Shown here in pieces: positions 358-50,175 of a stretch of 64,000 bases of DNA (position 1 is its first letter; the number at the start of each line of letters is the position of its first letter). Made by a program: the position numbers and the translations under genes. The stretch is from an uncultured Gemmatimonadaceae bacterium (GTDB lineage Bacteria; Latescibacterota; UBA2968; UBA8231): positions 545 to 64,544 of the forward strand of contig CAZEHQ010000003.1 of NCBI GenBank assembly GCA_964512165.1. The letters are read 5' to 3'. The notes below the pieces were generated by a model. That model did no database searches. It worked only from the letters and a program-made list of their open reading frames with translations, and was not told where the DNA came from.

Positions 358-2268
358 ATGAGAGTCGCACGACTCGTCTTCGTCACCGGGGCCCTGGTAG
401 CGCTCACCGCCGGCATGGCGGTGGCCCAGGGAGCCATCGGCGGCGAGGACAACCAGATCACCGAGAGCCGCATGCCCACGGCGCTCACGGTCGAGGTGGC
501 GGACATGACCGTCAGCAGCTTCCCCGTGGACATCCCCTTCACCACCAGCGGCTCGGCGGCCACGGTCTACCTGGCCGTGTACACCAATCTCTCCGACGCC
601 GACCTGCCGGGGCTCACCACCGAGGGCGATCTGAACTGGCATTCCTACCAGGAGATCGACTACGCCCTCCACGTCTCCCCCGGCTCGCGCTTCGAGCCCG
701 GCTCCCACTCCATCGCCTGGGACGGCACCGACATGAACGGCAACGCCGTCGACCCGTCGGGCAGCTACCGGTTCTTCATCATCGCCCTCGACGATGAGGC
801 GCCGGTCAACATGGTGGGCTACACCAACGCCCGCCACACCTCCGAGTCCTGCCTGGCCCGCGACCAGAACGGCGACCTCTACATCCTCAGCGGCGGTTCC
901 GTGGTGCGGCTCACGGACGGCGGCCCCCGGCACCTGATCATCAGCAAGGTCGGAACCAACTGGCTGGAGACGCCGGGCGCCTGGCAGGCGATCGACGTGG
1001 AGGACATGGTGGCCTCGGTGCGCCATGAGGACGACATCGTGCCCGTCGAGTGGGCCGGCGGCGGCAACGGCAAGCAGTACGGCTCGCTGCCCGGCGACTT
1101 CTACGGCGATTCCTGGGACGGCACGATCTACGGGTCGATCAAGTTCAACGTCGATCCGGCCAACGGCCAGGTCACCCTCGACAACAACTTCGGCGACCAG
1201 GGCGACGGCCGCCTGAAGTTCGAGCCCTTCAGCGACGGCAACCTCATCGTCGGCTCCACGGGCATCGATTCCTGGGACGGTCTCATCTACTACCCGATCT
1301 ACGACCGGGGCCGCGAGACCGCTCCGCACTCGAACGTGGGGGTCCAGGACCCGACCACCGGCGAGGTCGTCGATGTCCTCGACCTGTCCGAGTGGAACGT
1401 GGTGCAGGTGGAGGATGCCGACGGCAACCCGACCCAGTCCGCCTTCAGCCCCCACGACATCTGGGTTGACGGCACCGGCGTCTACGTGGTCGGATACGCC
1501 GCCGCGCTGCACCTCAAGGTCACCCTCGACGGCGAGCTCAAGTGGATCAACAACAACGGCGACGGCTTCGCCGACAGCATCAACCCCGACACCGGCGAGT
1601 TCGACTACGGTTCCTTCGCCCTCACGCCCTGGAACACGTCGGGCTCGGGGAGCAAGGACGGCTGGGGCTTCGCCTACATCCCGCTGCTGGGCAGCACCAC
1701 CAGCACGGTGGACATCCTCGGCCCGGACGGCACGGGGATCCTGCACATGGTCGCCACCCACGCCCCCGCCCACTGGCCGCAGTGGGTCGAGTCGATCGAG
1801 GAGGACGGTCCCTACGACGGTCTCTACTGGGACATCGGCTCGCGGCGCGGCGGCGGCGCCGACCCCTGGGACCTGCCCGACTTCACCGGGTTCCCGGCGC
1901 GTCAGGCGATCCACTTCCCCTTCGACCTCAAGTCGGCCGTGATCAACAGCGACACGGCCGTCGAGGAGGTCGCGGGCGCCGGCAAGCCCGGTTCCTACAG
2001 CCTCGGGGACGCCTATCCCAACCCCTTCAACCCGGAGTCTACGATCCGCTTCAGCCTCCCCCGGGAGGAGCACGTGACCCTTCAGGTCTTCAGCCTGACG
2101 GGCCAGCTGGTCAAGACTCTGCACGAGGGCTACGTTGAGGCCGGCGTCTACGAGAGCGTCTGGGACGGCATGGACGAGGCCGGGGCGAGCGTGGCCAGCG
2201 GTGTCTACCTGTACAACCTGCAGGCCGGCTCCTTCCAGCAGACCAAGAAGCTGACCCTGCTCAAGTAG
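358..2268 (+). CDS. Secreted protein with a T9SS-type C-terminal sorting domain (Por_Secre_tail / FlgD-Ig-like)
   Basis: Lies in ORF 16..2268. The ATG at 358 gives the signal peptide MRVARLVFVTGALVALTAGMAVAQG. The C-terminus AYPNPFNPESTIRFSLP...GVYLYNLQAGSFQQTKKLTLLK fits the CTD pattern. The N-terminal region has the FlgD-Ig-like motif IAWDGTDMNGNAVDPSGSYRF. Confidence 0.75.
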   Translation: MRVARLVFVTGALVALTAGMAVAQGAIGGEDNQITESRMPTALTVEVADMTVSSFPVDIPFTTSGSAATVYLAVYTNLSDADLPGLTTEGDLNWHSYQEIDYALHVSPGSRFEPGSHSIAWDGTDMNGNAVDPSGSYRFFIIALDDEAPVNMVGYTNARHTSESCLARDQNGDLYILSGGSVVRLTDGGPRHLIISKVGTNWLETPGAWQAIDVEDMVASVRHEDDIVPVEWAGGGNGKQYGSLPGDFYGDSWDGTIYGSIKFNVDPANGQVTLDNNFGDQGDGRLKFEPFSDGNLIVGSTGIDSWDGLIYYPIYDRGRETAPHSNVGVQDPTTGEVVDVLDLSEWNVVQVEDADGNPTQSAFSPHDIWVDGTGVYVVGYAAALHLKVTLDGELKWINNNGDGFADSINPDTGEFDYGSFALTPWNTSGSGSKDGWGFAYIPLLGSTTSTVDILGPDGTGILHMVATHAPAHWPQWVESIEEDGPYDGLYWDIGSRRGGGADPWDLPDFTGFPARQAIHFPFDLKSAVINSDTAVEEVAGAGKPGSYSLGDAYPNPFNPESTIRFSLPREEHVTLQVFSLTGQLVKTLHEGYVEAGVYESVWDGMDEAGASVASGVYLYNLQAGSFQQTKKLTLLK

Positions 2269-2431: not shown

Positions 2432-4645
2432 ATGATCCGCGGGCCCGGGGGCCGACAGTGGTGGGATCCTCCGCCAGAAAAGGGAAGAAGGCTCTCATTG
2501 CGAACAGGACTTCCTTCGCTCTTGTCGGGTCTGCTGTTCCTCGGCGGCCTCGCGGGGCCGGCCGTGGCCGACGTGCTCCGCATCGGCCACTGGCAGCAGA
2601 CCACCTACTACCGCCACACCTTCCAGGCCGATGAAGCGAGGGACGCCCTGCTGCGGATCACCGCCGTGGGGGAGTACGTCGCCTGGCTCAACGGCGAGGA
2701 GGTCGCCGCCGACGGCGACTGGCGGACCGCCGAGGCGGTCCCCATCTCCGCGCAGCAGGGCGACAACCACATCGCCGTGGCGGTGACCAACGTCCCCGGG
2801 GAGGCCGGCGCCGGGCTCCTCCTCAGCCTCCAGGGCGGCCCCCTCGTCGCCCGCAGCACCTTCTCCGACGAGATCACCCCGTGGTACTGGACGGGGGAGA
2901 GCCAGGAGGGCACGGCCTGGACGACGGCCGACGTGCAGGGCGCGTGGAGCCGGGTCGGCGCCGGGTCTCTCGACAGGGTGGGGGTGAGCGAGGCGATCTT
3001 CCATCCGGAGGCGGAGGTGGTCGCCGGCTATCCGAGCGAGGTCAACGTCGCCAGTTCCCCGGGGGGCCGCATCGTCCTGGCCGATCAGCGCGGGCGCAAC
3101 ATCGCCCTCGGGACCAACGCCAGCGAGGTGGGCGTCACCGACGGGTCCCTGGGCCTTCCGGTGTGGTCCCTGCCCCAGGGGCTCGGAGCGCTGAACCGCG
3201 TCCTCAACATCGCCCTGCCGGGCCTGACCCGGATCAACCGGGTCCGGGTGATCACCAAGCCCCCGGAGGGCAACGAGACCTGGCAGGGCAACTCCCTCCT
3301 CGGGTACTCGGTGCAGGTCAGCGAGGACCAGTCCCGCTGGATCGAGATGGGGGGGGTCAACGACATCGACACCCCCGTCTACACCGAGGTCCGCTTCAAT
3401 CCGGTCCTGGCGCGCCACGTCCGGGTGCAGGTGACCCAGGCCGAGGTCGGCGCCGACCCCGCGAAAGTGGCGGAGATCCAGATCTACGGGGTCGACTTTG
3501 TTCCCGCCGGGGCCTACGTCTCGCCGCCGCTGGACCTGGGGGACCCGGAGGCGGTGAAGAACTACGGCCGCGCCCGCTGGTGGGGGGAGGTTCCCCCCGG
3601 GACGTCCCTCGGTCTGCAGTTCAGCACCGGCGACAGCCCCGACCCGGCCGACGGCAGCTGGAGCGCCTGGAGCGCGGAGTTCGCGGACTCGGGGGCCCTC
3701 ATCCCTTCTCCCGAGCCCCGCCGCTACCTGCGCTACCGCGTGAACCTGCGCACCGACGATCTCGAGTTCACCCCCGCCCTCGACAGCCTCGAGATCGACT
3801 ATGACGCGGCGGCCATCGCGGCGCGCAGCGCCACCGCTTCGGTCGTTCCCAACGAGGCTCCCATGGGGGAAGACGTGGACTTCCGCTTCAGCATCGGCAT
3901 AACCCTCGAAGAAGGGGATGCCCTGGAACGGGTCCGGGTCCGCCTTCCCAGCCTCCCCAGCGCCGTGAACTCGATCCAGCTGCTGGGGCAGGAAGTCGCC
4001 GTGCCGGAGTTCCCCACGAACCCGGAGGGCGTGGACGCGGGCGGCCGGACTCTGCGGGTGGTTCCCGCCGACGTGCGAGACGTGGACATCGCCTTCGATC
4101 CTCCCCTTACCTCCGCCGACGGCAGCGAGATCACCCTGGCCGTCTCGGCGCGGTGCGCCCTCTACACCGATACCCACGATTTCCGCGCCTTCCTCTTCAG
4201 TCCGGGCTCCGACAATCCCCTGAACGTGCTGGAAGAGACCGCCGACGGAGCCTCCTGGACCGTGGTGGTGAGCGATGTCGTGGCCGGAGACCTGCTCGAG
4301 GTCCGAGCGCAGCCATCGGCCTTCTCCCCCAATGGAGACGGCATCAACGACTTCACGATCATCGAGTTCGCCCTCACCAAGGTGACCGAGCCCCGCCGGG
4401 TGGACGTCGATCTGTACGACCTGGGGGGGCGCCGGGTCCGGAGGCTGGAGACGCCGCGCCTCATCGGCGGCCGGTACCTCCATCCCGGCCTGGGCGCCGC
4501 GGGGTCGGCGTTTTCTCCCGGGTTCTGGGACGGCAGGGACGATGCCGGCAACCTGGTGCCGCCGGGGATCTACCTGTTCTCGGTGCGGGCGAAGCTGGAC
4601 GACGGCGACGAGGCCGTCTCCGGAGTGGTGCATGTGGTCTACTGA
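2432..4645 (+). CDS. Secreted protein with a discoidin (F5/8 type C)-like domain and an FSPNGDG-type FlgD-Ig / CTD C-terminus
   Basis: Signal-like LSGLLFLGGLAGPAVADV. An alternative TTG start at 2498 is preceded by AGGGAAGAAGG. Discoidin-like segment: RINRVRVITKP...ARHVRVQVTQ...VAEIQIYG. C-terminus: SAFSPNGDGINDFTIIEF...FWDGRDDAGNLVPPGIYLFSV. Confidence 0.75.
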   Translation: MIRGPGGRQWWDPPPEKGRRLSLRTGLPSLLSGLLFLGGLAGPAVADVLRIGHWQQTTYYRHTFQADEARDALLRITAVGEYVAWLNGEEVAADGDWRTAEAVPISAQQGDNHIAVAVTNVPGEAGAGLLLSLQGGPLVARSTFSDEITPWYWTGESQEGTAWTTADVQGAWSRVGAGSLDRVGVSEAIFHPEAEVVAGYPSEVNVASSPGGRIVLADQRGRNIALGTNASEVGVTDGSLGLPVWSLPQGLGALNRVLNIALPGLTRINRVRVITKPPEGNETWQGNSLLGYSVQVSEDQSRWIEMGGVNDIDTPVYTEVRFNPVLARHVRVQVTQAEVGADPAKVAEIQIYGVDFVPAGAYVSPPLDLGDPEAVKNYGRARWWGEVPPGTSLGLQFSTGDSPDPADGSWSAWSAEFADSGALIPSPEPRRYLRYRVNLRTDDLEFTPALDSLEIDYDAAAIAARSATASVVPNEAPMGEDVDFRFSIGITLEEGDALERVRVRLPSLPSAVNSIQLLGQEVAVPEFPTNPEGVDAGGRTLRVVPADVRDVDIAFDPPLTSADGSEITLAVSARCALYTDTHDFRAFLFSPGSDNPLNVLEETADGASWTVVVSDVVAGDLLEVRAQPSAFSPNGDGINDFTIIEFALTKVTEPRRVDVDLYDLGGRRVRRLETPRLIGGRYLHPGLGAAGSAFSPGFWDGRDDAGNLVPPGIYLFSVRAKLDDGDEAVSGVVHVVY

Positions 4646-4675: not shown

Positions 4676-7381
4676 GTGAAGGTCAGAGTCCTCACACGAT
4701 CCGCTCTCGCGGCACTGGCGGCGCCCCTGCTGCTGTGGTCGTCCGCCGAGGCCCAGATGCTCTCGCGCGACGACTATCCTCTGTGGCAGAAGGAGGACTA
4801 CGAGAATATCGGCCGCTTCGGCTACCGCGACTTCGACGAGCGCGACGTGGAGCGGCGGGTCTACGACCCCTTCGGCGTCTACCTCATCGACGGCGTTCCG
4901 GTCTTCGCCCTCGAGGAAACCCGCACCCGGGGGCCCGAGCGCGGCAGCGGCATCTTCAAGAGCCCGCTCTATCCGAGCATCTTCCGCAACCTGATGATCG
5001 GCATGGACTCCTACCGGGGCTGGGCGGCGTCGGTCATGGTGGGCGACGCCGTGCCCACGCGGTTCTCCTCCCTCACCCTGAACCTGAGCCGCCTCAACGG
5101 CATCCGCTTCGACGCCTCCTCCCGCAAGTCGAGCTTCAGCATCGTGGGGTCGCGCATATCCGACCCGGTGCTGCTGGCCACGGGCCTGACCCAGAGCGGC
5201 GTGCAGGTCAACCCCGAGGGCGTCTTCGGAAGGCCGACCTTCGGCAGCTACCTCATCGGCGGCCACTGGGAGACGACCCTGGGCAACGTCCTCACCCTCG
5301 GATCGACGTACGTCAACGTCCACAACTTCGACAGCGTCGCCGGCCGCGACGAGGGCTCCCTGAAGGGGGTCGTCCCGTTCTCCGGCCTGGATGAGGCGAG
5401 GTCGGTCTTCGTCATCGTGAGCGACGACTCCCACTGGGACGGCGACGGCCCCAAGATCTTCCGCATGGAGATGTACGTCGACGGCGAGCTGAGGGACGAC
5501 ATCGAGCCCATGATCCGCATGCTGCCCTCGGTGCCCGTTCTCGTGGGGGAGGCGAACCGCGAGATCGGCCTCGGAACGAGCGAGATCAACCTGCGGCGGG
5601 CGGACCGGCCTTCGTGGCTGATCGAGAGCTACCGGATGGAGGAGATCGTCCGCGAGGGCTACGACCCGCGGGGCCGGCTCAGCAACTTCACCAGCGGCGG
5701 ACTGTTCTTCAAGGGAGGCGTGCCCGTTGAGCATGAGGGGGTCCCCTTCCTGCGGGCCGAGGGCACCGACGTCCTCGTGTACCGGTTCGAGGTGCCCCCG
5801 GGGACGAGGGAGGTCCGCTTCCGGGCCCTCGCCGCCGGGGACTACGTGATCGACGTGGCCAGCGCCCTCGGCTGGGTCGGGACGGACGTGCAGTGGCGCG
5901 ACTGGCACACGGTGAAGCGCGCCGCCAACAACGTCCGCGACGACGGCAACATGGGGTGGGTCACCTTCCGCTACGGCTTTCCCACCGGCATGGCCCTCTT
6001 CGGCATGGACTTCGAGGCCAGCTTACTCGGCTTCCGGGCCTGGGGGGAGTTCGCCCGCAACCGGTCGTACTTCAAGTTTCCCTCCGGCCGGGGGGAGCGC
6101 CTGTCCACCACCGAGGACGCCTGGTTCATCAACCTCCACCGGGACATGGGCGCCTGGGACCTGGGCTTCGAGTACATGAACATGCCCTCGACCTTCGCCA
6201 CGAGCTTCCCGGCCCTCATGCAGAATCCGCGGCAGAACGTGGTGGCCCCCTTCGAGCTGGTGGACGACAACGACGACCGCGACGAGTGGCCCGACCGCTG
6301 GGAGCAGCAGCGCGACTTCGCCTCCCTCAACCTCACGCCGGCTCCGGGGGCGGGACTGGGCTTCGGCGTCTTCCCCGGCCTCGACGTCGACAACGACGGC
6401 AGGCGGGACAACGTCTGGTACCGCGGCGGCGACCGGATCCTGACCTACTACGACCAGCCCTTCGTCTTCGGCGACGACTTCAACAACAACGGGCTGGTGG
6501 ACGGGTGGGAGAACGACAACCGGGCGGACTACCCCTACGACCAGGACCGCAGGGGAGGGCACGCCTTCCTCACCTGGAGGCCGTTCTCCGACCGGAAGAG
6601 CGTGTGGATGCGCCTCGGCGGTTACGACGTGCGCCAGCCCGACGGCGGCGGCCGGGACCGGGCCACCTACCTGAAAGCCAACTACCTGCGGCGCTGGGAG
6701 GGGCTCGGGCGGGTGCAGCTGAGCTACTACGGCAAGAGGGTCCGGGACGACGTGCCCAACGACCTCTATGTCCTCAGCGCCAGCTACAGCGTCATGCCCG
6801 ACCGGCTGCTGCTGCGCAACAGCCTGGTGAACACCGTCCTGGCGGGTGCCCACCTGAATACCGACGCCTTGCCGGATCTCAACATCTACAACGACATCCG
6901 GCTGTCGGTGAACGACCAGCGGGAGCTGGCGGATGAGCACTGCCAGCAGCCCGAGGCCCGGGTGACGAGCGTGGGCTACGTGGCCCGGGCCGACTACACC
7001 TGGCACCTCGGACCGAGCCTGAGCTTCGGCCCCATGTTCAAGGCCACCGTCAACCGCACCCTGGCGCGCCTGCCCAGCCTACGGAACCACACCTATACCC
7101 TGACACCCCTCTTCCGGGGCGACTACCGGCTCGCGTCGAAGACCGTGCTCAGAGGGGGGCTTCTGGGCCTGCCCTTCCGGGCGCGCTCCCGGAACCTGCT
7201 GTGGCCGTTCCTCGACAACGACTCCTGGTACTACATCCTGCTGCTGGAGAACCTCGGCAACTACCGCGGCATCGACGTGAGCACCAGCATCGGCTTCCAG
7301 AAGAACTTCATCCGTTACGTCTCCTCGCACCGGGTCCCCTCCGGGTCCGAGCGCTACTTCATCCGGCTGCGGATCGGTTAG
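4676..7381 (+). CDS. Giant outer-membrane-type protein, paralog 1 of 3 (Asp-rich calcium-binding-like loops)
   Basis: GTG start. Signal peptide MKVRVLTRSALAALAAPLLLWSSAEAQ. Shares blocks with the next two genes: FSSLTLNLSRLNGIRFD, GPKIFRMEMYVDGELR, VDDNDDRDEWPDRW, VFPGLDVDNDGRRDN, DDFNNNGLVDGWENDNRADYPYDQD. Confidence 0.75.
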   Translation: MKVRVLTRSALAALAAPLLLWSSAEAQMLSRDDYPLWQKEDYENIGRFGYRDFDERDVERRVYDPFGVYLIDGVPVFALEETRTRGPERGSGIFKSPLYPSIFRNLMIGMDSYRGWAASVMVGDAVPTRFSSLTLNLSRLNGIRFDASSRKSSFSIVGSRISDPVLLATGLTQSGVQVNPEGVFGRPTFGSYLIGGHWETTLGNVLTLGSTYVNVHNFDSVAGRDEGSLKGVVPFSGLDEARSVFVIVSDDSHWDGDGPKIFRMEMYVDGELRDDIEPMIRMLPSVPVLVGEANREIGLGTSEINLRRADRPSWLIESYRMEEIVREGYDPRGRLSNFTSGGLFFKGGVPVEHEGVPFLRAEGTDVLVYRFEVPPGTREVRFRALAAGDYVIDVASALGWVGTDVQWRDWHTVKRAANNVRDDGNMGWVTFRYGFPTGMALFGMDFEASLLGFRAWGEFARNRSYFKFPSGRGERLSTTEDAWFINLHRDMGAWDLGFEYMNMPSTFATSFPALMQNPRQNVVAPFELVDDNDDRDEWPDRWEQQRDFASLNLTPAPGAGLGFGVFPGLDVDNDGRRDNVWYRGGDRILTYYDQPFVFGDDFNNNGLVDGWENDNRADYPYDQDRRGGHAFLTWRPFSDRKSVWMRLGGYDVRQPDGGGRDRATYLKANYLRRWEGLGRVQLSYYGKRVRDDVPNDLYVLSASYSVMPDRLLLRNSLVNTVLAGAHLNTDALPDLNIYNDIRLSVNDQRELADEHCQQPEARVTSVGYVARADYTWHLGPSLSFGPMFKATVNRTLARLPSLRNHTYTLTPLFRGDYRLASKTVLRGGLLGLPFRARSRNLLWPFLDNDSWYYILLLENLGNYRGIDVSTSIGFQKNFIRYVSSHRVPSGSERYFIRLRIG

Positions 7382-7387
7382 GCGGCC

Positions 7388-10216
7388 ATGGGCAGGTCCC
7401 GCATCCTCCTTCGTCTCGCCGCCGCCGCCCTGGTCCTGCAGGGAGGGCCGGCGGACAGCGCCGTGCGCGGTCCCGGCCTCTTCCTCTACCGGCCGGGCGA
7501 GGGCTACACGACCCATGCCCGGGAGCCCTACAAGCACTGGCCGCGCTCCTACCTGGTGCGCCCCGAGGACCTCGTCTTCGACGAGCTGGGCAACTTCGTG
7601 GTCGAGGGCATCGAGGTCTTCCGGCTGCGGGAGTCCCGGACCCTGAATCCGGAGCCGGGCAGCCTCATCGACAAGAGCCGCTATTTCAAGGACTACCTCA
7701 GCCGGCTCTCCGTCGCCTCCGACTCCTACGGGGACTTCCACACCACCCTCGCCGTGGGCGACCAGATCCGCACCAAGTTCACATCTCTCACCCTGGACCT
7801 GGCGGCGATGAACGGCATCCGCTGGGACATGAGCACCTCCCGGGGGGACTTCACCCTCGTCAACTCCCGCCTCGACTACCCGATCTTCGACGTCACCGCC
7901 AACGACGACAACCGGCAGCACAACTACAGCGCCGTCGGCACCAAGCCGCCGTTCTTCGCCACGTACCTGCTGGGCTCCCACGTGCGCACCCGCATCGGGG
8001 CCCTGAACCTCGGGGCGGCGTGGGTCAACCAGTACCGCATCAACAGCCTCCTGGGGCGCGGGGAGTGGGACCTGCGCGGCGCCATCCCGGGGAACACGCC
8101 CGCCATCGACTACCTGGTGATCCGCTTCGCCGACGGATCGATCGAGGACGGCGGCGGGCCCCGCGTCTACGATCTCGACGTCTACATCAACGGCGAGCTG
8201 CGGCCGGAGCTGCGGGTCCACCCGGACGCCGCCTCGGCGGCGGGCATCGACGACACGGGGCGCATCATCGTGACCCGCCACCACGTGGAGGACATCGATC
8301 CCGCCTTTCCGAACGGCGACAAGCTGTACCCCCGGGAGCTGGGCCGCGAGATCCCGCCCTACGTGGAGTTCATCAGCGGCCTCCTGCCCGAGGAGTTCCC
8401 CGGCGAGCGGGGGTACCTGGAAGCCCACGGCAAGGAGTACCTCCTCTACTGGGTGCCCCTGGGCGAGGAGGACGTGAACGAGGTTTCCTTCAGGGCCAAG
8501 GTGGCCAACGACTACCGGATCAGCATGTCCGAGGTCTATGCCAACGTCCCTGCCCGAGCGCGCAAGGACCGGACCCCGCGCGACCGCAACCGGGCCCTCT
8601 ACTTCCAGGACGTGGCCCACGCCCGGGGCCGGATCCAGGATCTCTCCAACCTGGGGGTGGTGGAGTTCCAGTACGGCCGGCAGACGGGCCGGATGCTCGC
8701 CGGCGTGCACGCCGACCTGGAGGTGGACGACTTCTCCTTCCGGGCGGAGTACGACGTGAGCACCGACTTCCGGCGCTATCCCGTGGCTGCCGGCAAGCGC
8801 AGCCGCTCACGGGGCGACGCCTTCTTCGCCAACGCCACCCTGCGGCGCGGAGACTGGTCCTTCGGCGGCGAGGTGTTCTCCATGGACCCGGAGTACGGCA
8901 CCTCCCTGCACGTGCAGGACCCGTCCTACCAGAGCTTCGTCACCCTGCCCTTCGCCCCCCTGGACAGCGAGATCGCGGGCGGTCTCAAGGGCATCGACGG
9001 GTTCAACCAGAGCTCCCTCAACGGCACCCTGGTCTTCGACACGGTAGAGGACAACGACGACAAGGACCGCTTCGCCGACACACACTACATCGAGTCGAGG
9101 CGCGATCTCGACGGCGTCTTCCCGGGCCTCGATCTCGACCAGGACGGCCGGCCCGAGACCAACCGCAACAACAACGGCATTCCCGACTACCTCGAGCCCT
9201 TCCTGCTCTTCGAGGTCAACCCCGAGGAGTACGACTACGGCGACGACCTCAACAACAACGGCATCATCGACATCCGCGAGGACGACCCCACCGTCGACTA
9301 CCCGTACGACCCCGACCTGGCGGGAGTCCACCTCTTCGCCAGCCTCCATCCGCTGCGGGGGGCCTCCCTCACCGTCGGCCGCTACCAGACCCGCCAGATC
9401 GCCGCTGGGGGGGAGAACAATGTTCTGTACGGCAAGGCGGAGTACGAACGCCACCTTCCCTTCTGGGGGAGGTTCACCCTCATCGACTTCGTCAAGAGGG
9501 TGGAGGACGACATCCGCAACGACGTCTTCCTCTTCCCCCGCAACGCCACCTTCGAGTTGCAGGAGGACGTGAGCGGACGCCTCACCGGCACCGGGCTGGG
9601 CGTGACCTTGATCGAGGATCCGCTGCGCATGCAGGACAGTTTCGTCAACACGGCGTACGCCGCCCTCGACTTCGCCGGGCTGAAGCCGATCGACATCCAC
9701 CTCGACTACAAGCACGACTTCAACCACCAGTACGGCCGGGACGGCGGGCCTTCGAACCGCATCATCCGCTCCACCTCCGTGGTCAAGGGCAAGTACTCCC
9801 GGCCTCTCTCGGGGCGCTTCCGGGGGATCACCGTCACCCCCATGGCCAAGCTCATGTCCCAGAAGCTGACGGACGGGCGCTTCCCGGTCTCCGTGCTGCA
9901 CGAGCTGTTCTTCTATCCCATCCTCCGCGTGGACTGGAGGCTCACCCCCCTCACCAGCGTGCGCGTGGGCGCCCAGGGGTTCCCCTTTCTGCGCAGCCGC
10001 TCCCTCGACCTGGTCAATCCCTCCCGCGACTTCGACGGTGAGGACTACGTGGCCATCCTGGCCAACACCTTCACCTACCAGGGCTACGAGGTGAACTTCA
10101 ACGTCGGCTACCAGGTCCAGAAGCGGACCTTCGCCTCCCCGCTCCGGGCCCAGTCCAACGTGGACACCTCCATCTTCTTCTTCCGGGCCCTGGTGGGTCT
10201 GCGTCCGGTGATATAG
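7388..10216 (+). CDS. Giant outer-membrane-type protein, paralog 2 of 3
   Basis: Starts 6 nt after paralog 1. Signal-like MGRSRILLRLAAAALVLQGGPADSA. Blocks: FTSLTLDLAAMNGIRWD, GPRVYDLDVYINGELR, VEDNDDKDRFADTHY, VFPGLDLDQDGRPETNRNNNGIPDYLEPF, DDLNNNGIIDIREDDPTVDYPYDPD. Confidence 0.8.
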   Translation: MGRSRILLRLAAAALVLQGGPADSAVRGPGLFLYRPGEGYTTHAREPYKHWPRSYLVRPEDLVFDELGNFVVEGIEVFRLRESRTLNPEPGSLIDKSRYFKDYLSRLSVASDSYGDFHTTLAVGDQIRTKFTSLTLDLAAMNGIRWDMSTSRGDFTLVNSRLDYPIFDVTANDDNRQHNYSAVGTKPPFFATYLLGSHVRTRIGALNLGAAWVNQYRINSLLGRGEWDLRGAIPGNTPAIDYLVIRFADGSIEDGGGPRVYDLDVYINGELRPELRVHPDAASAAGIDDTGRIIVTRHHVEDIDPAFPNGDKLYPRELGREIPPYVEFISGLLPEEFPGERGYLEAHGKEYLLYWVPLGEEDVNEVSFRAKVANDYRISMSEVYANVPARARKDRTPRDRNRALYFQDVAHARGRIQDLSNLGVVEFQYGRQTGRMLAGVHADLEVDDFSFRAEYDVSTDFRRYPVAAGKRSRSRGDAFFANATLRRGDWSFGGEVFSMDPEYGTSLHVQDPSYQSFVTLPFAPLDSEIAGGLKGIDGFNQSSLNGTLVFDTVEDNDDKDRFADTHYIESRRDLDGVFPGLDLDQDGRPETNRNNNGIPDYLEPFLLFEVNPEEYDYGDDLNNNGIIDIREDDPTVDYPYDPDLAGVHLFASLHPLRGASLTVGRYQTRQIAAGGENNVLYGKAEYERHLPFWGRFTLIDFVKRVEDDIRNDVFLFPRNATFELQEDVSGRLTGTGLGVTLIEDPLRMQDSFVNTAYAALDFAGLKPIDIHLDYKHDFNHQYGRDGGPSNRIIRSTSVVKGKYSRPLSGRFRGITVTPMAKLMSQKLTDGRFPVSVLHELFFYPILRVDWRLTPLTSVRVGAQGFPFLRSRSLDLVNPSRDFDGEDYVAILANTFTYQGYEVNFNVGYQVQKRTFASPLRAQSNVDTSIFFFRALVGLRPVI

Positions 10217-13200
10217 TGGCCCGCTTCGGAAACTTGCGGGGCTTCGGCCCGCGGAGGGCCCTCGTGGCGGCCGTCGTCGCCGCCGGCTCCCTCGGGCCGG
10301 CGCCCGCAGAGGCCCAGGAGACCGGGAGCTGGAGCTGGGGGCCGCGCACGGACATCGAGATCCCCGAGGTGCCGCGCATCCAGCCCGACCGGATGTTCCT
10401 CCGGCGGCCGTGGGAGCCCTACAGGAACTACGCCCACCGCGAGAGGATGTACACCAACTACCCGACGATCCTGTCGCCGTACCGGGACCCCAAGCGGTTC
10501 TACTACGGCCCCCTGGGCAACCGTCTGGCCTACGGGATCCCCGGCTACGACTGGGTGGAGACGCGGGGCCTGGGCCCCCAGGGACGGGGCAGCTCGTCGC
10601 AGGCGATCACCGGGAACCTCTACCACTATCCCGGCCGCGAGCAGACCACCTACCGGCGCTACTTCGAGGATGTGCTCACGGTCTCGGAGCAGACCGACAC
10701 CTGGTCGGGGAGCCTCACCATCGCCCAGGAGATGCGGGGGCGCTTCACGCCCCTGACCCTCAAGGTCAACGCCTTCCCCGGTTTCCGCCTCGACTGGGGT
10801 ACCGAGCGCACCGACATGTCGGCCCTGTTCATGACCTGGAGCACGGTGCGCATGGGCGCCCTCCACATGCAGCGCCGCGTCGGCCTCCTCGATTTCGGGC
10901 TGACCTACGTGAACGCCCACGAGAGCTTCAGCGACAGCTACGGCCACGCCTTCTCCCGCAAGGGCGTGCTGCGCCACAACCAGCCCTACCCGGAGATCAT
11001 CGCCGTCAAGTTCTCCGACGACTCGCCCGGGGACGGCCGCGGCGGACCCCATATCGTGGACCTGAACATCTACGTGAACGGGGTCCTGCGGAAGGACATC
11101 GTCCCCGACGTGATCGAGCAGATCGACGGGGTCACCCAGTCCTCCGTGGGCAAGCTCAGCGCCCAGGGCCTGGTGCGCAACGTCTACGCCGAGCTGTCGT
11201 CGGCCTTCACCTCCTCCGTGCCCACGGGGACCACGTACATGCGCTACCGCCACAACGAGGCGCCACTGTACATGGACTACCTGTTCTTCCGGGATCTCCG
11301 GCTGCACGATCCTGTCGACCCGGAGCGCGAGTTCACCACTTACGTCTGGCGCGACGTGGAGTTCCCCGTGGAGGAGCCGTGGCACCTGGCCGTCAACCTG
11401 CAGCCCGACGCATCCACCAGCCGCAACCACTACAAGGACAACGCCGCGGAGATCCTGGCCGAGCGGTTCACCGAGGAGGAGGTCGTGCGCATCCTCCTCC
11501 GCAACAATGCCCTGAACAACACCTACAGGCCCCTGGAGCAGTCCTTCCGCTGGCGCAGCGACGAGACGGGGCCCATCGAGGTCTCCGGCGACGACTTCGT
11601 CGTCTACTACTTCAACCTGGAGGGGCTGGGCTTCGTCCAGTCCGTCTCCTTCGATGCCCTGGTGGCCAACGACTACAAGGTCGAGGTGGGCACCGTGGCC
11701 CGGAAGAGAAGGTTCGACCTCGACGATCCGTTGGCCGCCATCGACGTTCCCTACACGGGCCGCTACGGGGCGCCGACGCTCTATCGCACCGTGAAGCGGG
11801 CGCCGGGCAACGTGCAGGACCGGTCCAACCTGCAGCGCATCAGCTTCGACATCGGCTCCGAGACGGGCATGGAGATCTTCGGCGCCGACTTCAGCACCAA
11901 CATCCTCGGCCTGAAGATCGACGGCGAGTACGCCCGCAGCCTGCACCACTTCCAGTACCCCGACGGCGTCGTCGGCCCCGATCCCACCACCCCCGTGCGC
12001 GCCGGCAAGCGCTTCGGCTCGAAGGGCGAGGCGTACTACCTCGTGGTGCGCAAGGAGCACGAGCGCTTCGACTGGGGCGCCGAGTACTTCCACATGGGGC
12101 CGAACTACAACACCGAGCTGCTGCTGCTGGGCACGCCTGCCGTGCCCCACTTCAACAGCACCCTGCGGCTCATGATGGTGGACGACAACGACGACGACGA
12201 CCGCTTCCCCGACGCCTGGTTCCAGCAGTACATCTCCGGTTTCGTCAACGAGGGGGTCGACGCCGACGGCGTCTTCCCGGGCAAGGATCTCGACGGCGAC
12301 GGCCGGCCGGACACCAACCGCAACGGCAACCGACTGCCCGACTATCTCGAGCCCTTCCTGATGTACGACGTGGAGTCGGACGACTACGTCTACGATCTCG
12401 ACATGAACAACAACGACCGTCCCGACAGCCGCGAGGACGATCCCGAGCCCGACTACCCCTACGCCGAGGACCTGGAGGGCTACCACGCCATCGGCACCTG
12501 GCGGCTGACGAACAACCTGGCCCTCTCCCTGGGGCGCCTCGACTCCCGCCAGGTCCACGGCGGCGGCGCCAATCTCATGAACTACGGCCGCCTGAGCTGG
12601 ACCGCCAGGCAGCCCCGCCTCGGCCAGCTCCACGTGGAGAACACCCTCAAGCGCGTCCGGGACTCCGTGCCCGACCGCGTCCTGGTCTCCTCCGACTTCT
12701 CGCGGGGGCCCTTCGGCAAGGTCCACCTCGCCGGCTTCGGGTACCAGCAGCAGTGGGACCTGAACCTGATCGAGGACGAGCTGAGGTACCGCAACAGCTG
12801 GGCCAACCGGTTCTTCGTGCAGGCGGACCTGAGCCCCCTGCGGGGCCTGAGGATGCACCACGACCTGCGTTTCGAGCTGAACCGCCAGCAGCGGGGTTTC
12901 CTGGACGACGGCACTCACCAGAGGAGCAACGAGATCCGCGCCCTGAGCTCGGTCCACCGCGCCGACTACACCTGGCGCCGGTTCAAGAACCGGCTGGAGA
13001 TCGGCCCGGCCTTCAAGCTGCTCTTCCTCAAGCGTACCCAGGAGACCGTGGACGTGCCGCTGGCGGACGAGACGACGGTGATCCCCATCTTCAAGGCCAG
13101 CTACCACGTGACCCCCAGGACCACCTTCCGCTTCGGCGTCCAGGGCCTGCCCTTCTGGAAGTACCGGCTGAAGGACAACGGCAACGACTGGAACAGCTTC

Positions 13201-13380
13201 GAGCAGAACGTCTACGTTCTGATGATGACCAACCGCTCCGACTACTTCGGCTACGAGATCGTGACCAATGCCGGCATAACCCTCGACAGCCGCACCTACG
13301 ACGACCCCTTCCGGGGGGCGGACAACACCGACATCATGGCCACCTTCGTGCAGATCGTGGCAGGAGCACCCCGGCTGTGA
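10216..13380 (+). CDS. Giant outer-membrane-type protein, paralog 3 of 3
   Basis: The GTG start overlaps the TAG stop of paralog 2 by 1 nt. Signal-like RRALVAAVVAAGSLGPAPAEAQE. Blocks: FTPLTLKVNAFPGFRLD, GPHIVDLNIYVNGVLR, VDDNDDDDRFPDAWF, VFPGKDLDGDGRPDTNRNGNRLPDYLEPF, DLDMNNNDRPDSREDDPEPDYPYAED. Confidence 0.8.
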   Translation: MARFGNLRGFGPRRALVAAVVAAGSLGPAPAEAQETGSWSWGPRTDIEIPEVPRIQPDRMFLRRPWEPYRNYAHRERMYTNYPTILSPYRDPKRFYYGPLGNRLAYGIPGYDWVETRGLGPQGRGSSSQAITGNLYHYPGREQTTYRRYFEDVLTVSEQTDTWSGSLTIAQEMRGRFTPLTLKVNAFPGFRLDWGTERTDMSALFMTWSTVRMGALHMQRRVGLLDFGLTYVNAHESFSDSYGHAFSRKGVLRHNQPYPEIIAVKFSDDSPGDGRGGPHIVDLNIYVNGVLRKDIVPDVIEQIDGVTQSSVGKLSAQGLVRNVYAELSSAFTSSVPTGTTYMRYRHNEAPLYMDYLFFRDLRLHDPVDPEREFTTYVWRDVEFPVEEPWHLAVNLQPDASTSRNHYKDNAAEILAERFTEEEVVRILLRNNALNNTYRPLEQSFRWRSDETGPIEVSGDDFVVYYFNLEGLGFVQSVSFDALVANDYKVEVGTVARKRRFDLDDPLAAIDVPYTGRYGAPTLYRTVKRAPGNVQDRSNLQRISFDIGSETGMEIFGADFSTNILGLKIDGEYARSLHHFQYPDGVVGPDPTTPVRAGKRFGSKGEAYYLVVRKEHERFDWGAEYFHMGPNYNTELLLLGTPAVPHFNSTLRLMMVDDNDDDDRFPDAWFQQYISGFVNEGVDADGVFPGKDLDGDGRPDTNRNGNRLPDYLEPFLMYDVESDDYVYDLDMNNNDRPDSREDDPEPDYPYAEDLEGYHAIGTWRLTNNLALSLGRLDSRQVHGGGANLMNYGRLSWTARQPRLGQLHVENTLKRVRDSVPDRVLVSSDFSRGPFGKVHLAGFGYQQQWDLNLIEDELRYRNSWANRFFVQADLSPLRGLRMHHDLRFELNRQQRGFLDDGTHQRSNEIRALSSVHRADYTWRRFKNRLEIGPAFKLLFLKRTQETVDVPLADETTVIPIFKASYHVTPRTTFRFGVQGLPFWKYRLKDNGNDWNSFEQNVYVLMMTNRSDYFGYEIVTNAGITLDSRTYDDPFRGADNTDIMATFVQIVAGAPRL

Positions 13381-13427: not shown

Positions 13428-13970
13428 ATGAGGAACCTCATCCTGACCCTCGCCCTCTCCGGGGTCCTGCTGCCCTGCCGCGCCCACGCCGAGGAGGACA
13501 TCTTCGCCGCCCGCAAGACCGCCTCCCGCAAGGAGGCCGTGATCCTGTCGGCCCTGTTCCCGGGGCTGGGGCAGCTCTCCACCGGGCGCAAGGTGACGGG
13601 GACGATCCTCCTCGTCGCCGAGATCGGCTCCCTGGCCACGGTCCTGACGGCCAACGAGAACTACAACACCCGCCTCGACAACTTCGAGCGGCTGAAGTCG
13701 GAGTACGAGCAGATGGCGGCGGGCAACAGCTGGCACGACCTGGCCGAGCAGCGCTGGCAGGAGCTGACCGCCGAGGCCGACGACCTCGACAGCCTGCACA
13801 ACCTGCGCCGGGCCTACACGGCCGCCGCCGTGGGCATCTACGTCTACAACCTCGTCGACATCCTTCTCCTCAACCCTCCCGAGGCCGCGGCGGCCAGGTC
13901 CTGGAGCCTGCGCGCCGTGCCGGGTCTGGGGGAGGGCCCCGCCCGGCTGATGGTGACGGGGAGCTTCTGA
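13428..13970 (+). CDS. DUF5683-like small envelope protein
   Basis: ATG at 13428, in frame with ORF 10410..13970. Signal peptide MRNLILTLALSGVLLPCRAHA. The motif SALFPGLGQLSTGRK followed by a hydrophobic helix is as in DUF5683-type proteins. Confidence 0.6.
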   Translation: MRNLILTLALSGVLLPCRAHAEEDIFAARKTASRKEAVILSALFPGLGQLSTGRKVTGTILLVAEIGSLATVLTANENYNTRLDNFERLKSEYEQMAAGNSWHDLAEQRWQELTAEADDLDSLHNLRRAYTAAAVGIYVYNLVDILLLNPPEAAAARSWSLRAVPGLGEGPARLMVTGSF

Positions 13971-13989
13971 AACCTCTCGGAGATTGAGC

Positions 13990-14367
13990 ATGAGCAAGGC
14001 TCTGTGGCCGTTGCTGGCTATCCTGATCGTCTACATCTCGGCGTGCGGCGAGGAACACAGCCTCCCCTCGAAGTTCCACGACGGCCGGGTGGAGACCCCA
14101 GCCGACCTGGAGGCGAGGTTCGACGGGGACGACGTCGTCCTGGATTGGAGCGTCGCCGCGCCCGGGGAGATCCTCTACTACATCGTCACCATGGCGGAGG
14201 GCACCACCGGCGCCGAGCGGCAGTTCACAGCTCCCGGGGACAGCGCCTCGTACGCCCTGGTGGAGTTCGCCTGGACCGACTCCTTCTACGTCTTCCAGGT
14301 GCAGGCGGTGGACCATACCGACTTCGTGGGCCAGGCCTCCAACGTGGACACTCTCTTCGTCCCATGA
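13990..14367 (+). CDS. Lipoprotein with an FN3-like beta-sandwich
   Basis: GGAG lies 8 nt upstream of the ATG at 13990. Lipobox-like LAILIVYISAC. FN3-like pattern: DLEARFDGDDVVLDWSVA...YYIVTM...YVFQVQAVD. Confidence 0.6.
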   Translation: MSKALWPLLAILIVYISACGEEHSLPSKFHDGRVETPADLEARFDGDDVVLDWSVAAPGEILYYIVTMAEGTTGAERQFTAPGDSASYALVEFAWTDSFYVFQVQAVDHTDFVGQASNVDTLFVP

Positions 14368-15617
14368 TGCCAAGTCAGACACGGGGCCGCTTCGGAGCCC
14401 CCTCCGACGCGCTCAACCTGCGGCGGCTCCACCGCGAGAACCGCAAGGTCGCCTGGGTCTCCTACGCGCTGGCGGCGACCATGGCGGCCTCGGTCCTGGG
14501 CTACTTCATCGCCGTCAAGCGGGAGAAGCCGGCGGCCAAGCCTCTGGCGATGGAGTTCATCATCCGCAAGCCGCTGGCCAAGAAGTCCTTCCGCATGCGC
14601 AAGGCCCAGGTGCAGAAGCGCGTCATGACGAGGCGCGTCGTCGCCTCCAAGCCGAAGCTCGCCCACACCCCCCCGAGGGAGATCCGCCGCGCCGACGCCT
14701 TGGGCAACGTGGCGGTCTTCGCCCACCAGATCGACGCCGGCACGAGCGTCGGCACCGGCACCGTCACCCCCGAGATCGCCGCCGTCCAGATCCGCAGCTC
14801 CAAGGACCCGGAGAAGCGCATCAGCATGCAGGAGGAGTTCCTCGATCTCAACGCCCTCGACACCGGCAAGTACCGGGGCATGGTGATCCAGGACCCGACG
14901 GACCGCAGGAACATCCGCGGCTTCGTCTACCTCGCCCTGGCCTGGGGCAACGACCTGCAGCCCGACGCGCCGCGCTCGGTCTCGCGCCTCGCCGACGGCA
15001 TCAACTCCTACACGGGGATCCAGGCCAAGGTGGCCGACCACATGTTCCTCGACTCGCCGGAGCTGTTCAAGACTCCCTTCGTCTACATCACCGACAAGGA
15101 CGGCTTCGAGCTCACCGACAACGAGATCGAGAGCCTCGGCCGCTACATGCGCAGCGGCGGCTTCATCCTCGCCGACAACGACCGGCCGGACCTCAACTTC
15201 GGGCCCGCGGAAGCGTCGCTGCGGGCCATGTTCGGCCAGGCCCTCGGGCGCGACGGCCAGCTCGAGAGGATCCCCAACAGCCATCCCATCTTCAACAGCT
15301 TCTTCGACCTCGACGGCCCTCCCGTGGGGGGGGAGTACCTGAGCGTGCGGGGCAATCCCGACATCTTCTACCTCAACTCCGCCGAGGCCACCGACGTCTA
15401 CTACCAGCCGGACGAGGTGCAGTTCCTCGAGGGGGTCTTCCTCGACGGACGCCTGGTGGCGGTCTACTCCGACATGGGCTACGGCAGCATCTGGCAGGAC
15501 GAGTTCGAGAACGAGCCCCAACTGAGGATGGGGGTGAACCTCGTGGTCTTCGCCCTCACCCAGGAGGGCTCCATCGCGCAGCAGCAGATCGACTTCTACA
15601 CGCAGCTCACCGACTAA
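14364..15617 (+). CDS. Membrane-anchored DUF4159 domain protein with a Lys/Pro-rich linker
   Basis: ATGA start/stop overlap with the upstream gene. One TM segment (VAWVSYALAATMAASVLGYFIAV). A basic linker follows (KREKPAAKPLAMEFIIRKPLAKK...SKPKLAHTPP). DUF4159-like C-terminal domain: FVYITDKDGFELTDNEIESLGRYMRSGGFILADN...NLVVFALTQ. Confidence 0.7.
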   Translation: MMPSQTRGRFGAPSDALNLRRLHRENRKVAWVSYALAATMAASVLGYFIAVKREKPAAKPLAMEFIIRKPLAKKSFRMRKAQVQKRVMTRRVVASKPKLAHTPPREIRRADALGNVAVFAHQIDAGTSVGTGTVTPEIAAVQIRSSKDPEKRISMQEEFLDLNALDTGKYRGMVIQDPTDRRNIRGFVYLALAWGNDLQPDAPRSVSRLADGINSYTGIQAKVADHMFLDSPELFKTPFVYITDKDGFELTDNEIESLGRYMRSGGFILADNDRPDLNFGPAEASLRAMFGQALGRDGQLERIPNSHPIFNSFFDLDGPPVGGEYLSVRGNPDIFYLNSAEATDVYYQPDEVQFLEGVFLDGRLVAVYSDMGYGSIWQDEFENEPQLRMGVNLVVFALTQEGSIAQQQIDFYTQLTD

Positions 15618-17233: not shown

Positions 17234-18577
17234 ATGAACCTCCGCACCGCCCTTCTCGTCAGTCTCCTCTTCGTCCTCGTCCTCGGCGCCTTGCTCTGGT
17301 CCAACCGGCGGGAGGGGCAGAAGGAGGAGGCCGACGTCCTCTCCCGGGAGCTGCTGGTCTTCGACAAGAAGGAGGCGGACGAGCTCACCGTCGACGGCCC
17401 CAAGGGCCGGGTGGTCTGCCGCAAGGTGGGGGACCAGTGGAGGATCGTCGAGCCCGTGGAGGTCGACGCCAGCCGCGGCGCCGTGGAGACGGTGCTGGTC
17501 AACCTGGAGCGGGCGCGCCTGAAGAAGTACCTGCCCCTCGAGGACGTGGGTGACCGCGACGTCCTCGAGGAGTTCGGCCTCGACCCGCCTCACCTCATGG
17601 TGACCCTTCGCGTCAAGGGCAGCGTCCTCGACACCGTCCTCTACGGGGACAGCCCCATGGGCGTGTACGTCTACGTCAAGAAGACCTCCGAGGACCGCGT
17701 CGGCATGGTCGAGTTCTACCGGCGCACCGGAGTCGACCGGGGGCTCGCCCAGCTCCGCGAGAAGCGGGCCCTCAAGCTCGACTGGGACCAGGCCCGGGAC
17801 CTGCGCGTCGAGAGCGCCGGGGCCACCGTGGAGGTGGCGATGGCGGAGGACGGCTGGCGGATGACGAGCCCCCGGGAGACGAGGGGCGACGAGGAGGGGA
17901 TCGAGGAGGTCCTCAAGGGTCTGAGCGCGCCGGTGAAGGAGTTCGTCGACGACCGTCCCGCGAGCCTCGAGGAGTACGGCCTCGAGGCGCCGCGGATCCG
18001 CATCGAGGTGACAGGCTCCGACGGCGGGACCCATGGCCTGTGGATCGGCGGCGGCGCGGAGAACGGGTTCTACGCGAAGAGCCTCTCCCAGCCCTCGGTC
18101 TTCACCGTCGACTCCGCTCTCGTGGAGCGGCTCGACGAAGCCGCCTTCGGCCTGAGGTTCAAGCGTCTCCTCGCCTTCGAGAGGAAGGCCGTGGACCGCG
18201 TCGAGTTCGCCTACCCGGGCCGGACCGTCCTCTGCGTGCGGCAGGGACAGGCGTGGCTGGCGGTGCCCGACCAGCAGCCGGTGAACGGCCTCGAGCTCGA
18301 GGCCATCCTCTACACCATGGAGGAGCTGCGGGCGGAGGACTTCCTCGCCGGCGACGCCGGTTCCGCCGCCTACGGGCTCGAGCCGCCGCGGGCGCGGATC
18401 CGGGTGTGGGCCGCGGACCGGCTCGTGGGCGATCTGGCCCTCGGTCGGGTGCAGGGAGAGATGGTCTACGCGAAGGGCAGCGAGACCGACCTCGCCTGCC
18501 TCGTCGACAGGGAGACGGTCGGGCTCCTGGGGGTGGACCGGATCTTCAAGGAACAGGGCTCGAGCGGTGGCGGATGA
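17234..18577 (+). CDS. Membrane-anchored periplasmic protein, DUF4340-like
   Basis: N-terminal TM segment LLVSLLFVLVLGALLW. It is followed by repeated modules resembling DUF4340 (ELTVDGPKGRVVCRKVGDQWRIVEPVEVDA...). No Pro-rich spacer or TonB C-terminal motif was seen. Confidence 0.55.
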   Translation: MNLRTALLVSLLFVLVLGALLWSNRREGQKEEADVLSRELLVFDKKEADELTVDGPKGRVVCRKVGDQWRIVEPVEVDASRGAVETVLVNLERARLKKYLPLEDVGDRDVLEEFGLDPPHLMVTLRVKGSVLDTVLYGDSPMGVYVYVKKTSEDRVGMVEFYRRTGVDRGLAQLREKRALKLDWDQARDLRVESAGATVEVAMAEDGWRMTSPRETRGDEEGIEEVLKGLSAPVKEFVDDRPASLEEYGLEAPRIRIEVTGSDGGTHGLWIGGGAENGFYAKSLSQPSVFTVDSALVERLDEAAFGLRFKRLLAFERKAVDRVEFAYPGRTVLCVRQGQAWLAVPDQQPVNGLELEAILYTMEELRAEDFLAGDAGSAAYGLEPPRARIRVWAADRLVGDLALGRVQGEMVYAKGSETDLACLVDRETVGLLGVDRIFKEQGSSGGG

Positions 18578-23099: not shown

Positions 23100-23122
23100 C
23101 GAAGCAAGGAAAGGGTGAGGAA

Positions 23123-32995: not shown

Positions 32996-33027
32996 CCCGA
33001 TCTCGACAAGTGAGAGGGAGGTAGCCA

Positions 33028-33873: not shown

Positions 33874-33912
33874 CACCCGCCCCGGAAGAGACCCGCCCGA
33901 CCCGAGATCGCC

Positions 33913-48477: not shown

Positions 48478-48489
48478 CGGGAGAGGCGA

Positions 48490-50110: not shown

Positions 50111-50175
50111 GCGCGGAGCGTTCACGGTGTCCTCGATGGACGGCCCGCGATAAGGAGCAGGCGCGGAGCGTTCAC
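50111..50175. repeat. Perfect 15-nt direct repeat, 50 bp apart, spanning the sulfatase stop codon
   Basis: GCGCGGAGCGTTCAC occurs at 50111-50125 and 50161-50175. The second copy contains the TCA (TGA on the minus strand) stop of 50172..51524. Confidence 0.7.

Follow-up and report, generated by a model that had tools for sequence, protein, structure and literature searches.

What are three giant genes that follow one another almost without a gap in the genome of an uncultured bacterium, and do they act as a set? The question is raised by a stretch of 64,000 nucleotides (hereafter the window) from contig CAZEHQ010000003.1 (assembly GCA_964512165.1) of an uncultured Gemmatimonadaceae bacterium that GTDB places in the Latescibacterota. 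A sequence-only reading of this DNA had singled out three tandem paralogs, here called G1, G2 and G3, as secreted proteins with calcium-binding-like loops and large beta-barrels that matched no named outer membrane (OM) family. Our analysis shows that they belong to a previously unnamed family of giant OM barrels, with about 24 strands in the predicted structures, and sequence comparison identifies them as an anciently diverged trio with a set order. By its gene neighbourhoods, the trio is part of a conserved system that includes surface proteins with a C-terminal sorting domain (CTD), tetratricopeptide repeat (TPR) scaffolds and DUF4159 proteins, joined in this subtype by an ExbB-ExbD-ExbD motor. 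OM barrels of this size are rare, and the known classes each stand for a major process of the envelope, be it the insertion of lipopolysaccharide, the assembly of pili, type IX secretion or electron transfer out of the cell.

Three distant paralogs

Both junctions proved to be as first described, with a 6-nt gap between G1 and G2 (TAG-gcggcc-ATG) and a 1-nt overlap between G2 and G3 (taGtg). Third-position GC content is 0.95-0.96 in all three, a value typical of genes in this window (67-74% GC), which argues that they are real genes. Their paralogy was borne out by pairwise BLASTP scores far above chance, with 30% identity over 932 columns for G1 and G2 (E = 2e-92), 32% over 642 columns for G2 and G3 (E = 2e-74), and 32% over 580 columns for G1 and G3 (E = 2e-55), as well as by an end-to-end alignment that is collinear over the full length of the proteins. 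The N-termini, read by eye, are Sec-like with AEA/Q-type sites, in line with the signal peptides that had been proposed for all three.

The shared motif blocks were located by regular expression and lie at homologous positions in G1/G2/G3: F[TS]xLTL at residues 130/131/177, GP[KRH][IV]x5Y[VI][DN]G[EV]LR at 258/257/277, V[DE]DNDDxD[ER][WF]xD at 529/553/655, VFPGxDxDxDGR at 565/577/686, and DxNNN[GD]xxDxxE[DN]DxxxDYPYxxD at 601/620/729. One listed element did not hold throughout, as NGIR(F/W)D reads PGFRLD in G3, and PDYLEPF is restricted to G2 and G3, as had been stated.

A predicted giant barrel

The AlphaFold2 (AF2) model of G1, built from a 122-sequence alignment, is good (predicted local distance difference test, pLDDT, 85.2; predicted TM-score, pTM, 0.85), and that of G2, built from 37 homologs, is moderate (pLDDT 66.9, pTM 0.63). 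In the G1 model the chain from residue about 90 onwards, up to the C-terminus, is folded into about 24 long antiparallel strands, and in the AF2 models the barrel is preceded, after the signal peptide, by a conserved N-terminal segment of about 65 residues. Every turn of 2-3 residues lies on one side of the G1 barrel and the long connections lie on the opposite side; by the usual convention for OM proteins, the short-turn side is periplasmic. The long loop insertions of G1 are a 215-residue alpha/beta domain (residues 220-434) and a 121-residue acidic module (504-624), the latter between strands 494-503 and 625-634; insertions of about 215 and about 120 residues are ascribed to each of the three proteins. 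Averaged over 122 family members, hydrophobicity alternates along most strands (for example 9 0 9 0 7 1 9), the pattern expected of a barrel wall that faces lipid; in a single sequence, the Kyte-Doolittle profile of the predicted strands was uninformative.

Foldseek searches against the PDB returned OM barrels only, with the largest ones at the top, namely SlpA/SDBC, MtrB, LptD, SprA, TonB-dependent transporters and ushers, and the best matches were Deinococcus SlpA/SDBC (E from 1e-9 to 3e-8). Because the matches are all OM barrels and their TM-scores are just about 0.2-0.3, the barrel fold class is supported and no solved family is close. The large barrels had been expected in the C-terminal regions; a barrel fold is indeed predicted, but it takes in the whole protein from residue about 90 and not the C-terminal part alone. 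The AF2 models are giant beta-barrels, not soluble non-barrel folds.

A family without a name

Pfam and NCBIfam scans of G1, G2 and G3 gave only noise at E<=1, besides a weak match of G3 to SlpA_C (PF21620; E 0.019, 13.8 bits against a cut-off of 35) that has no counterpart in G1 or G2, and a profile of the three paralogs found no match among PDB sequences. The earlier failure to place them in a named OM family therefore stands, with no characterised family found by any of these searches. Membership of the usher, LptD and SprA families was rejected (no Pfam match, Foldseek TMq 0.14-0.23), as was that of the SlpA-type barrels, SlpA_C being below cut-off in G3 and absent from G1 and G2, and the SLH domain being unmatched. 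Deinococcus SlpA/SDBC resembles G1-G3 in being a very large barrel, and SlpA was solved as a trimer according to the title of its entry; the SlpA barrel has 30 strands.

A word-indexed homolog search was too shallow, returning 28, 13 and 12 proteins and missing even the paralogs within the window, so that an exhaustive hidden Markov model (HMM) search was needed to see the family. Run against 1.84 billion cluster representatives at 50% identity, it recovered 1,012 proteins at E<=1e-3, of which 326 reach E<=1e-30, and lengths of 850-1050 aa prevail among the 150 best matches listed. Every source annotation of these proteins reads 'hypothetical protein'. A scan of one genome per GTDB species found at least 550 family loci, nearly all in metagenome-assembled genomes (MAGs) labelled Latescibacterota or Gemmatimonadota, and a few labelled Kryptoniota, Bacteroidota, Myxococcales, Planctomycetota or Nitrospinota. 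A G1 with 90% identity to that of the window is on record from elsewhere, and a single Latescibacterota chromosome (OZ252098.1) holds two triplets (L034 and L040). The isolate names of the window's closest relatives are presumably of the kind given to sponge-derived MAGs. In the literature on Latescibacteria and Gemmatimonadetes, searched for type IX secretion, TonB, OM barrels and the DUFs, we found neither the family nor the cluster described. The family numbers about 1,000 sequence clusters with neither a name nor a domain model and is abundant in phyla known almost only from metagenomes, and a domain model for the family would allow thousands of 'hypothetical proteins' to be named. An 886-aa open reading frame (ORF) of the window (46593-49253), which comes after a DUF362/CTD gene, was considered as a fourth member and is not one.

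An acidic module in the long connections

The most distinctive sequence shared by the three paralogs is an Asp/Asn-rich module, in which Asp and Glu make up 24-31% of residues vs 13-14% across the whole proteins. It contains one EF-hand-like and two DxDxDG/thrombospondin type 3 (TSP3)-like motifs. The EF-hand-like loops (DFNNNGLVDGWE in G1, DLNNNGIIDIRE in G2 and DMNNNDRPDSRE in G3) have DxDxDG or DxNxNGxIxxxE spacing, and that of G2 (D-L-N-N-N-G-I-I-D-I-R-E) matches the canonical EF-hand loop DxNxNGxIxxxE; the VFPGxDxDxDGR block is of the DxDxDG type, as in thrombospondin type 3 or dockerin-like sites. The resemblance in spacing that had been pointed out is accordingly found in all three proteins. 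Among 122 diverse family members the Asp/Asn motif columns are the most conserved (at least 90%). By the logic of its motifs, the module may bind Ca2+.

Order and copy number of the barrels across genomes

In 81 retrieved loci, each ORF of the family was assigned to G1, G2 or G3, whichever it matched best. The 90 gene clusters comprise 25 tandem triplets, 11 doublets and 54 singlets. In 22 of the 25 triplets the order is G1-type, G2-type, G3-type, and in the remaining three the type of the third gene is a near tie. A recent tandem duplication was rejected as the source of the trio, given an identity of just about 30% between the paralogs and the unchanging order of their orthologs. The singlets form their own group, scoring slightly closer to G2, and there are many of them per genome. 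The expectation that homologs always come in threes next to exbB/exbD was not upheld, with singlets and doublets accounting for 54/90 and 11/90 of the clusters and ExbB/ExbD present in some subtypes only. In a variant arrangement (L013, L015, L016 and L018), a second lectin-like gene with F5/8 type C (F5/8C) domain and CTD lies between G2 and G3, and the TPR2-DUF4159-X block (Table 1) is upstream instead of downstream.

The earlier suggestion of a hetero-oligomeric or modular OM component is strengthened by the finding of three distinct orthogroups in the same order. The three orthogroups, their fixed order and the tight or overlapping junctions argue that all three proteins are needed together. 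On the simplest reading they would form a hetero-oligomer derived from a homo-oligomeric ancestor, and the conserved trio would be a natural case of such a transition.

Conserved neighbours of the trio

In the window, the trio is embedded in an operon-like array that spans about 24 kb of one strand and has short overlaps or gaps of at most 163 nt; its genes follow each other in the order of the rows from U1 to X in Table 1. U1 passes the cut-off of TIGR04183 (23 bits) with 37.8 bits and also matches Por_Secre_tail (27.7 bits) and FlgD_ig (E 8e-17); its signal-peptide-like start is at 358, where the ORF tool gives 16. U2 matches F5_F8_type_C with 29.8 bits against a cut-off of 28.2.

A gene for a CTD protein like U1 or U2 lies directly upstream of the barrels in 22/22 triplets, 10/10 doublets and 32 of 46 singlets, and most triplet loci have a U1-like gene on their upstream side. 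The strict PNGDGxND-type motif occurs in 39 of 70 upstream ORFs, a count in which the regular expression for the type-B motif misses cases, most of the other ORFs carrying variants such as TPNGDNIND when read by eye; CHU_C is above its cut-off in L036 and L062. Downstream, a TPR2 homolog of about 1,100 aa is found in 21 of 24 triplets, followed in one subtype by DUF5683 and the lipoprotein, and then by DUF4159 and Y/X. Y homologs are kept after DUF4159 in other loci, and tblastn matches of X adjoin DUF4159 in most triplet loci. The DUF4159 proteins of four loci keep the transmembrane helix and the Lys/Arg/Pro-rich linker, a TonB/TolA-like layout; a relative of known structure (PDB 4i66) is a structural-genomics entry without known function.

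Behind the DUF4159 block, L020, L021, L023, L026 and L029 carry ExbB, and also ExbD if the locus reaches that far, and in L040 ExbB comes directly after DUF4159. A compact one-barrel module flanked by housekeeping genes is present in L036 (Bacteroidota-labelled) and L038 (Kryptoniota-labelled), with the order F5/8C-CTD protein, 305-aa protein, barrel, 1051-aa TPR protein, ExbB, ExbD, DUF4159 protein, 279-aa protein and a second DUF4159-like protein, so that ExbB-ExbD lies here between the TPR gene and DUF4159. The singlets have a cassette of their own, consisting of a PpiC-type rotamase, two small proteins, two to three CTD proteins, the barrel, an FG-GAP/ASPIC protein and a TPR protein.

Table 1. 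Features of the barrel array, with positions in the window unless another locus is named.
Feature	Position	Strand	Description
U1	358..2268	+	Secreted, about 636 aa; type-IX-secretion type A C-terminal sorting domain
U2	2432..4645	+	Secreted, 737 aa; F5/8 type C (discoidin-like) domain and type-B-like CTD 'FSPNGDGINDF'; directly upstream of G1
G1	4676..7381	+	901 aa; predicted giant OM beta-barrel, paralog 1; first in the conserved G1-G2-G3 order (AF2, Foldseek)
G2	7388..10216	+	942 aa; predicted giant OM beta-barrel, paralog 2 (AF2, Foldseek)
G3	10216..13380	+	1054 aa; predicted giant OM beta-barrel, paralog 3, with longer surface insertion; orthologs third in other loci
DUF5683	13428..13970	+	Small membrane protein, 180 aa (PF18935, E 1.5e-6); same slot in L001, L017, L020, L027 and others
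Lipoprotein	13984..14367	+	127 aa, lipobox 'ISAC'; faint fn3-like domain (fn3, E 0.0017); conserved after DUF5683
DUF4159	14364..15617	+	N-terminal transmembrane helix, Lys/Arg/Pro-rich linker, periplasmic DUF4159 domain (PF13709, E 6e-29)
ExbB	15649-16377	+	ExbB/TolQ-like (PF01618, E 7.5e-29)
ExbD, ExbD	16399-16815, 16819-17229	+	Two ExbD/TolR-like genes (PF02472, E 2e-26 and 7e-30)
DUF4340	17234..18577	+	Membrane-anchored, N-terminal transmembrane helix (PF14238, E 2.8e-45)
TPR1	18574..19821	+	415-aa TPR protein; matches many TPR families
TPR2	19818..23099	+	1093-aa TPR protein, CpoB/BamD-like repeats; homolog directly after G3 in most other loci
Y	23123..23911	+	Conserved 262-aa lipoprotein (MSSRRKSICRILVCCAPLAAAGC...); inside long spurious ORF 21188..23911
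X	23920..24861	+	Secreted, about 313 aa, no family match; start codon uncertain; conserved after DUF4159/Y
G1 acidic module	6260..6550 (residues 529-625)	+	Asp/Asn-rich, EF-hand/TSP3-like (motif positions, acidity)
G2 acidic module	about 9044-9319 (residues 553-644)	+	Asp/Asn-rich; equivalent of the G1 module
G3 acidic module	about 12178-12474 (residues 655-753)	+	Asp/Asn-rich; equivalent of the G1 module
Transglutaminase-like gene	L006 18475-20634	-	718 aa; occupies the ExbB-ExbD-ExbD slot; same slot in L032

Two other genes of the window belong to families that were also met at the family's loci. One, at 43928-46513 (+), encodes an 861-aa DUF362 protein with a FlgD_ig-type CTD, and a DUF362 gene with CTD also lies near the single-barrel locus L002. 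The other, at 36404-38128 (+), encodes an FG-GAP/UnbV_ASPIC protein, of the same family as proteins that flank the singlets L062 and L082 and lie downstream of the triplet L004.

A working model and its alternatives

What could such a set of genes do? We tentatively propose, with slightly less than even confidence, that G1-G2-G3 are the OM module of an envelope-spanning system that has not been described before. The three barrels would form this module together, probably as a 1:1:1 hetero-oligomer, and the other parts would be the two secreted lectin-like CTD proteins, the TPR scaffold of about 1,100 aa, the small lipoproteins, the DUF4159 protein and the ExbB-ExbD-ExbD motor. The barrels would dock the CTD-bearing surface proteins encoded directly upstream, in a gene order that follows the same logic as that of type-B CTD cargo and PorP/SprF partner in Bacteroidota. 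The proton-motive force would be relayed via the DUF4159 and TPR proteins and would gate or drive movement at the barrels, which may serve the uptake of material captured by the lectin-like proteins, the use that we favour, or, about equally probably, the export or movement of surface proteins. If this working model is true, it would show how these bacteria capture or display macromolecules, and that sorting signals of the CTD type can function with a partner very unlike that of Bacteroidota. A more specific form of the model, in which the trio is the OM translocon of a distinct machine (a calcium-stabilised heterotrimer with a TPR scaffold, DUF4159 as a 'TonB substitute' and ExbB/ExbD) that handles CTD proteins or their cargo and represents a new type of energised transport, not a variant of the Ton, type IX or Glt systems, seems to us less likely than not, but has a real chance.

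Several observations weigh against the working model. A barrel can work without the other two, as the majority of singlets among the clusters indicates, and ExbB/ExbD were not found in the flanks of several other triplet subtypes. An unrelated transglutaminase-like gene on the opposite strand occupies the motor slot in L006 and L032, the closest relatives (about 75% identity), so that the motor genes are not always in the array; masked sequence was rejected as the cause of the missing ExbB/ExbD in L006, where there is no masking. Family scans of the array proteins found no TonB_C protein in the window's array. Neither a plug domain nor an evident TonB box was seen among the proteins searched, TonB-box motifs being hard to recognise from sequence, and the one hint of a TonB C-terminal domain is a sub-threshold TonB_C-like C-terminus fused to the Y homolog of L011 (17303-18586; E 0.007 and 17 bits, the cut-off being 24.6). 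CHU_C scores 22.7 bits in U2, under its cut-off of 27, and the acidic module matched neither the EF-hand nor the TSP_3 models in the Pfam scan. The low TM-scores to all solved barrels point the same way, and no family member is experimentally characterised.

The array shares with SusC/SusD-type transporters the combination of an OM barrel, carbohydrate-binding-type surface proteins and an ExbB/ExbD motor in multiplied loci, and the system could accordingly be an energised importer, in which the barrels are SusC-like channels, the lectin-like proteins provide SusD-like capture and DUF4159 replaces TonB; each of the three barrels may have a substrate of its own, or they may work jointly. We consider this rather unlikely as an account of the trio, but it has points in its favour: ExbB/ExbD and a membrane-anchored DUF4159 protein with Lys/Pro-rich linker stand in the same array, including the minimal module, the partner proteins have F5/8 type C domains, the many loci per genome recall polysaccharide-utilisation loci, and there are CBM9, DUF5107, GH42 (faint) and sulfatase genes in the vicinity. 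Ca2+ in surface loops, moreover, is used by TonB-dependent transporters, BtuB among them. Unlike SusC/SusD, however, G1-G3 show neither a plug nor a recognisable TonB box, Plug and TonB_dep_Rec find no match in them at E<=1, and their models have about 24 strands, not 22; their partners carry CTDs and not SusD-like lipoprotein features, and the candidate transducer is DUF4159, not TonB. Membership of the TonB-dependent transporters was rejected on the unmatched PF07715/PF00593, the strand number and Foldseek TMq values of 0.16-0.24 (BtuB, FemA, XusA, FptA). The surroundings of the singlets, too, are a fixed cassette of rotamase, CTD, FG-GAP/ASPIC and TPR proteins and not variable enzyme sets. 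Finally, ordinary receptors with a Plug domain, together with TonB/ExbB/ExbD, are already present in Latescibacteria (PMC4454575), which speaks against the importer and indicates that the G1-G3 system is not simply the Latescibacteria Ton system.

A role in secretion or anchoring only is, in our view, rather unlikely too. The barrels would then be oversized functional analogues of the PorP/SprF shuttles or even of SprA that release, anchor or move the CTD-bearing surface proteins, with ExbB/ExbD in the motor role that GldLM or AglRQS have in type IX secretion or gliding. In Bacteroidota, a type B substrate gene is commonly followed at once by a porP/sprF-like gene, in some cases together with a PorE-like one (PMC12618676), and the order of type-B-like CTD gene, barrel and TPR protein mirrors these substrate/SprF-like/PorE-like operons. 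The PorP/SprF-type position directly downstream of a type B CTD gene is taken in 22/22 triplets, and the likeness extends to the adhesin- or lectin-looking partners and to the many pairs per genome. PpiC-type rotamase genes in single-copy loci and the presence of SprA among the Foldseek matches fit as well. Unlike PorP/SprF, however, G1-G3 are about 900-1050 aa long with about 24 strands, have an acidic Ca-type module and are triplicated, and unlike the Bacteroidota operons, the array adds ExbB/ExbD and DUF4159. PorP/SprF proteins have about one third of the size of G1-G3. Membership of G1-G3 in the PorP/SprF family was rejected, since no such model matched at E<=1 in Pfam or NCBIfam.

The motor side of the secretion reading draws on the Agl-Glt 'core complex', whose function is unknown and in which one TolQ-like and two TolR-like proteins are joined by TPR proteins and a single-pass protein rich in Pro (PMC3169522); the ExbB, two ExbD, TPR proteins and single-pass protein of the array resemble it. 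Agl-Glt/Nfs systems (AglR/Q/S and GltC/D/E/G, in Myxococcus and others) are further like the array in combining several OM barrels with surface adhesins, in several copies per genome. The Glt barrels (GltA/B/H) are small. PorP/SprF, SprA and Glt models were unmatched, however: TPR1 scores 101 bits with NCBIfam GltE (cut-off 225) and 142 bits with Tgl, also under its cut-off, and PorW/SprE reaches 78 bits against 250, so that the GltE and PorW/SprE values are generic TPR scores. Glt family models are all under cut-off in the window array, where none but GltE gave a match, and the likeness to Agl-Glt seen here is one of composition.

Least probable by far are three independent porins or structural OM proteins of SlpA-like kind, in tandem by recent duplication and unlinked to their neighbours: SlpA/SDBC give the best Foldseek matches, G3 has its weak SlpA_C match and single-copy members occur, whereas the duplication is old and ortholog order is kept across distant MAGs, the neighbours are conserved, the Pfam scan found neither an SLH domain nor a coiled coil, and the TM-score is just about 0.2.

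Other genes of the window

Apart from the array, the window holds a set of sugar/glycan-use genes at 41756-42724, 50172-51524 (-), 57860-59953 (-), 60234-62207 (-) and 62438-63739 (-), comprising a UxuA-like dehydratase, a sulfatase, an MFS transporter, DUF6785/DUF6784 and a BNR-repeat (sialidase-like) protein. At 28488-34956 (+) it encodes, in a row, an amine oxidase-like flavoprotein, a spermidine synthase-domain protein, a DUF350 protein and an RCK-domain potassium channel, apparently unrelated to the barrels. A 1,494-aa ORF at 52973-57457 (-), which may be more than one gene, consists nearly entirely of WD40 repeats, enough for several beta-propellers, and is unusual in a bacterium.

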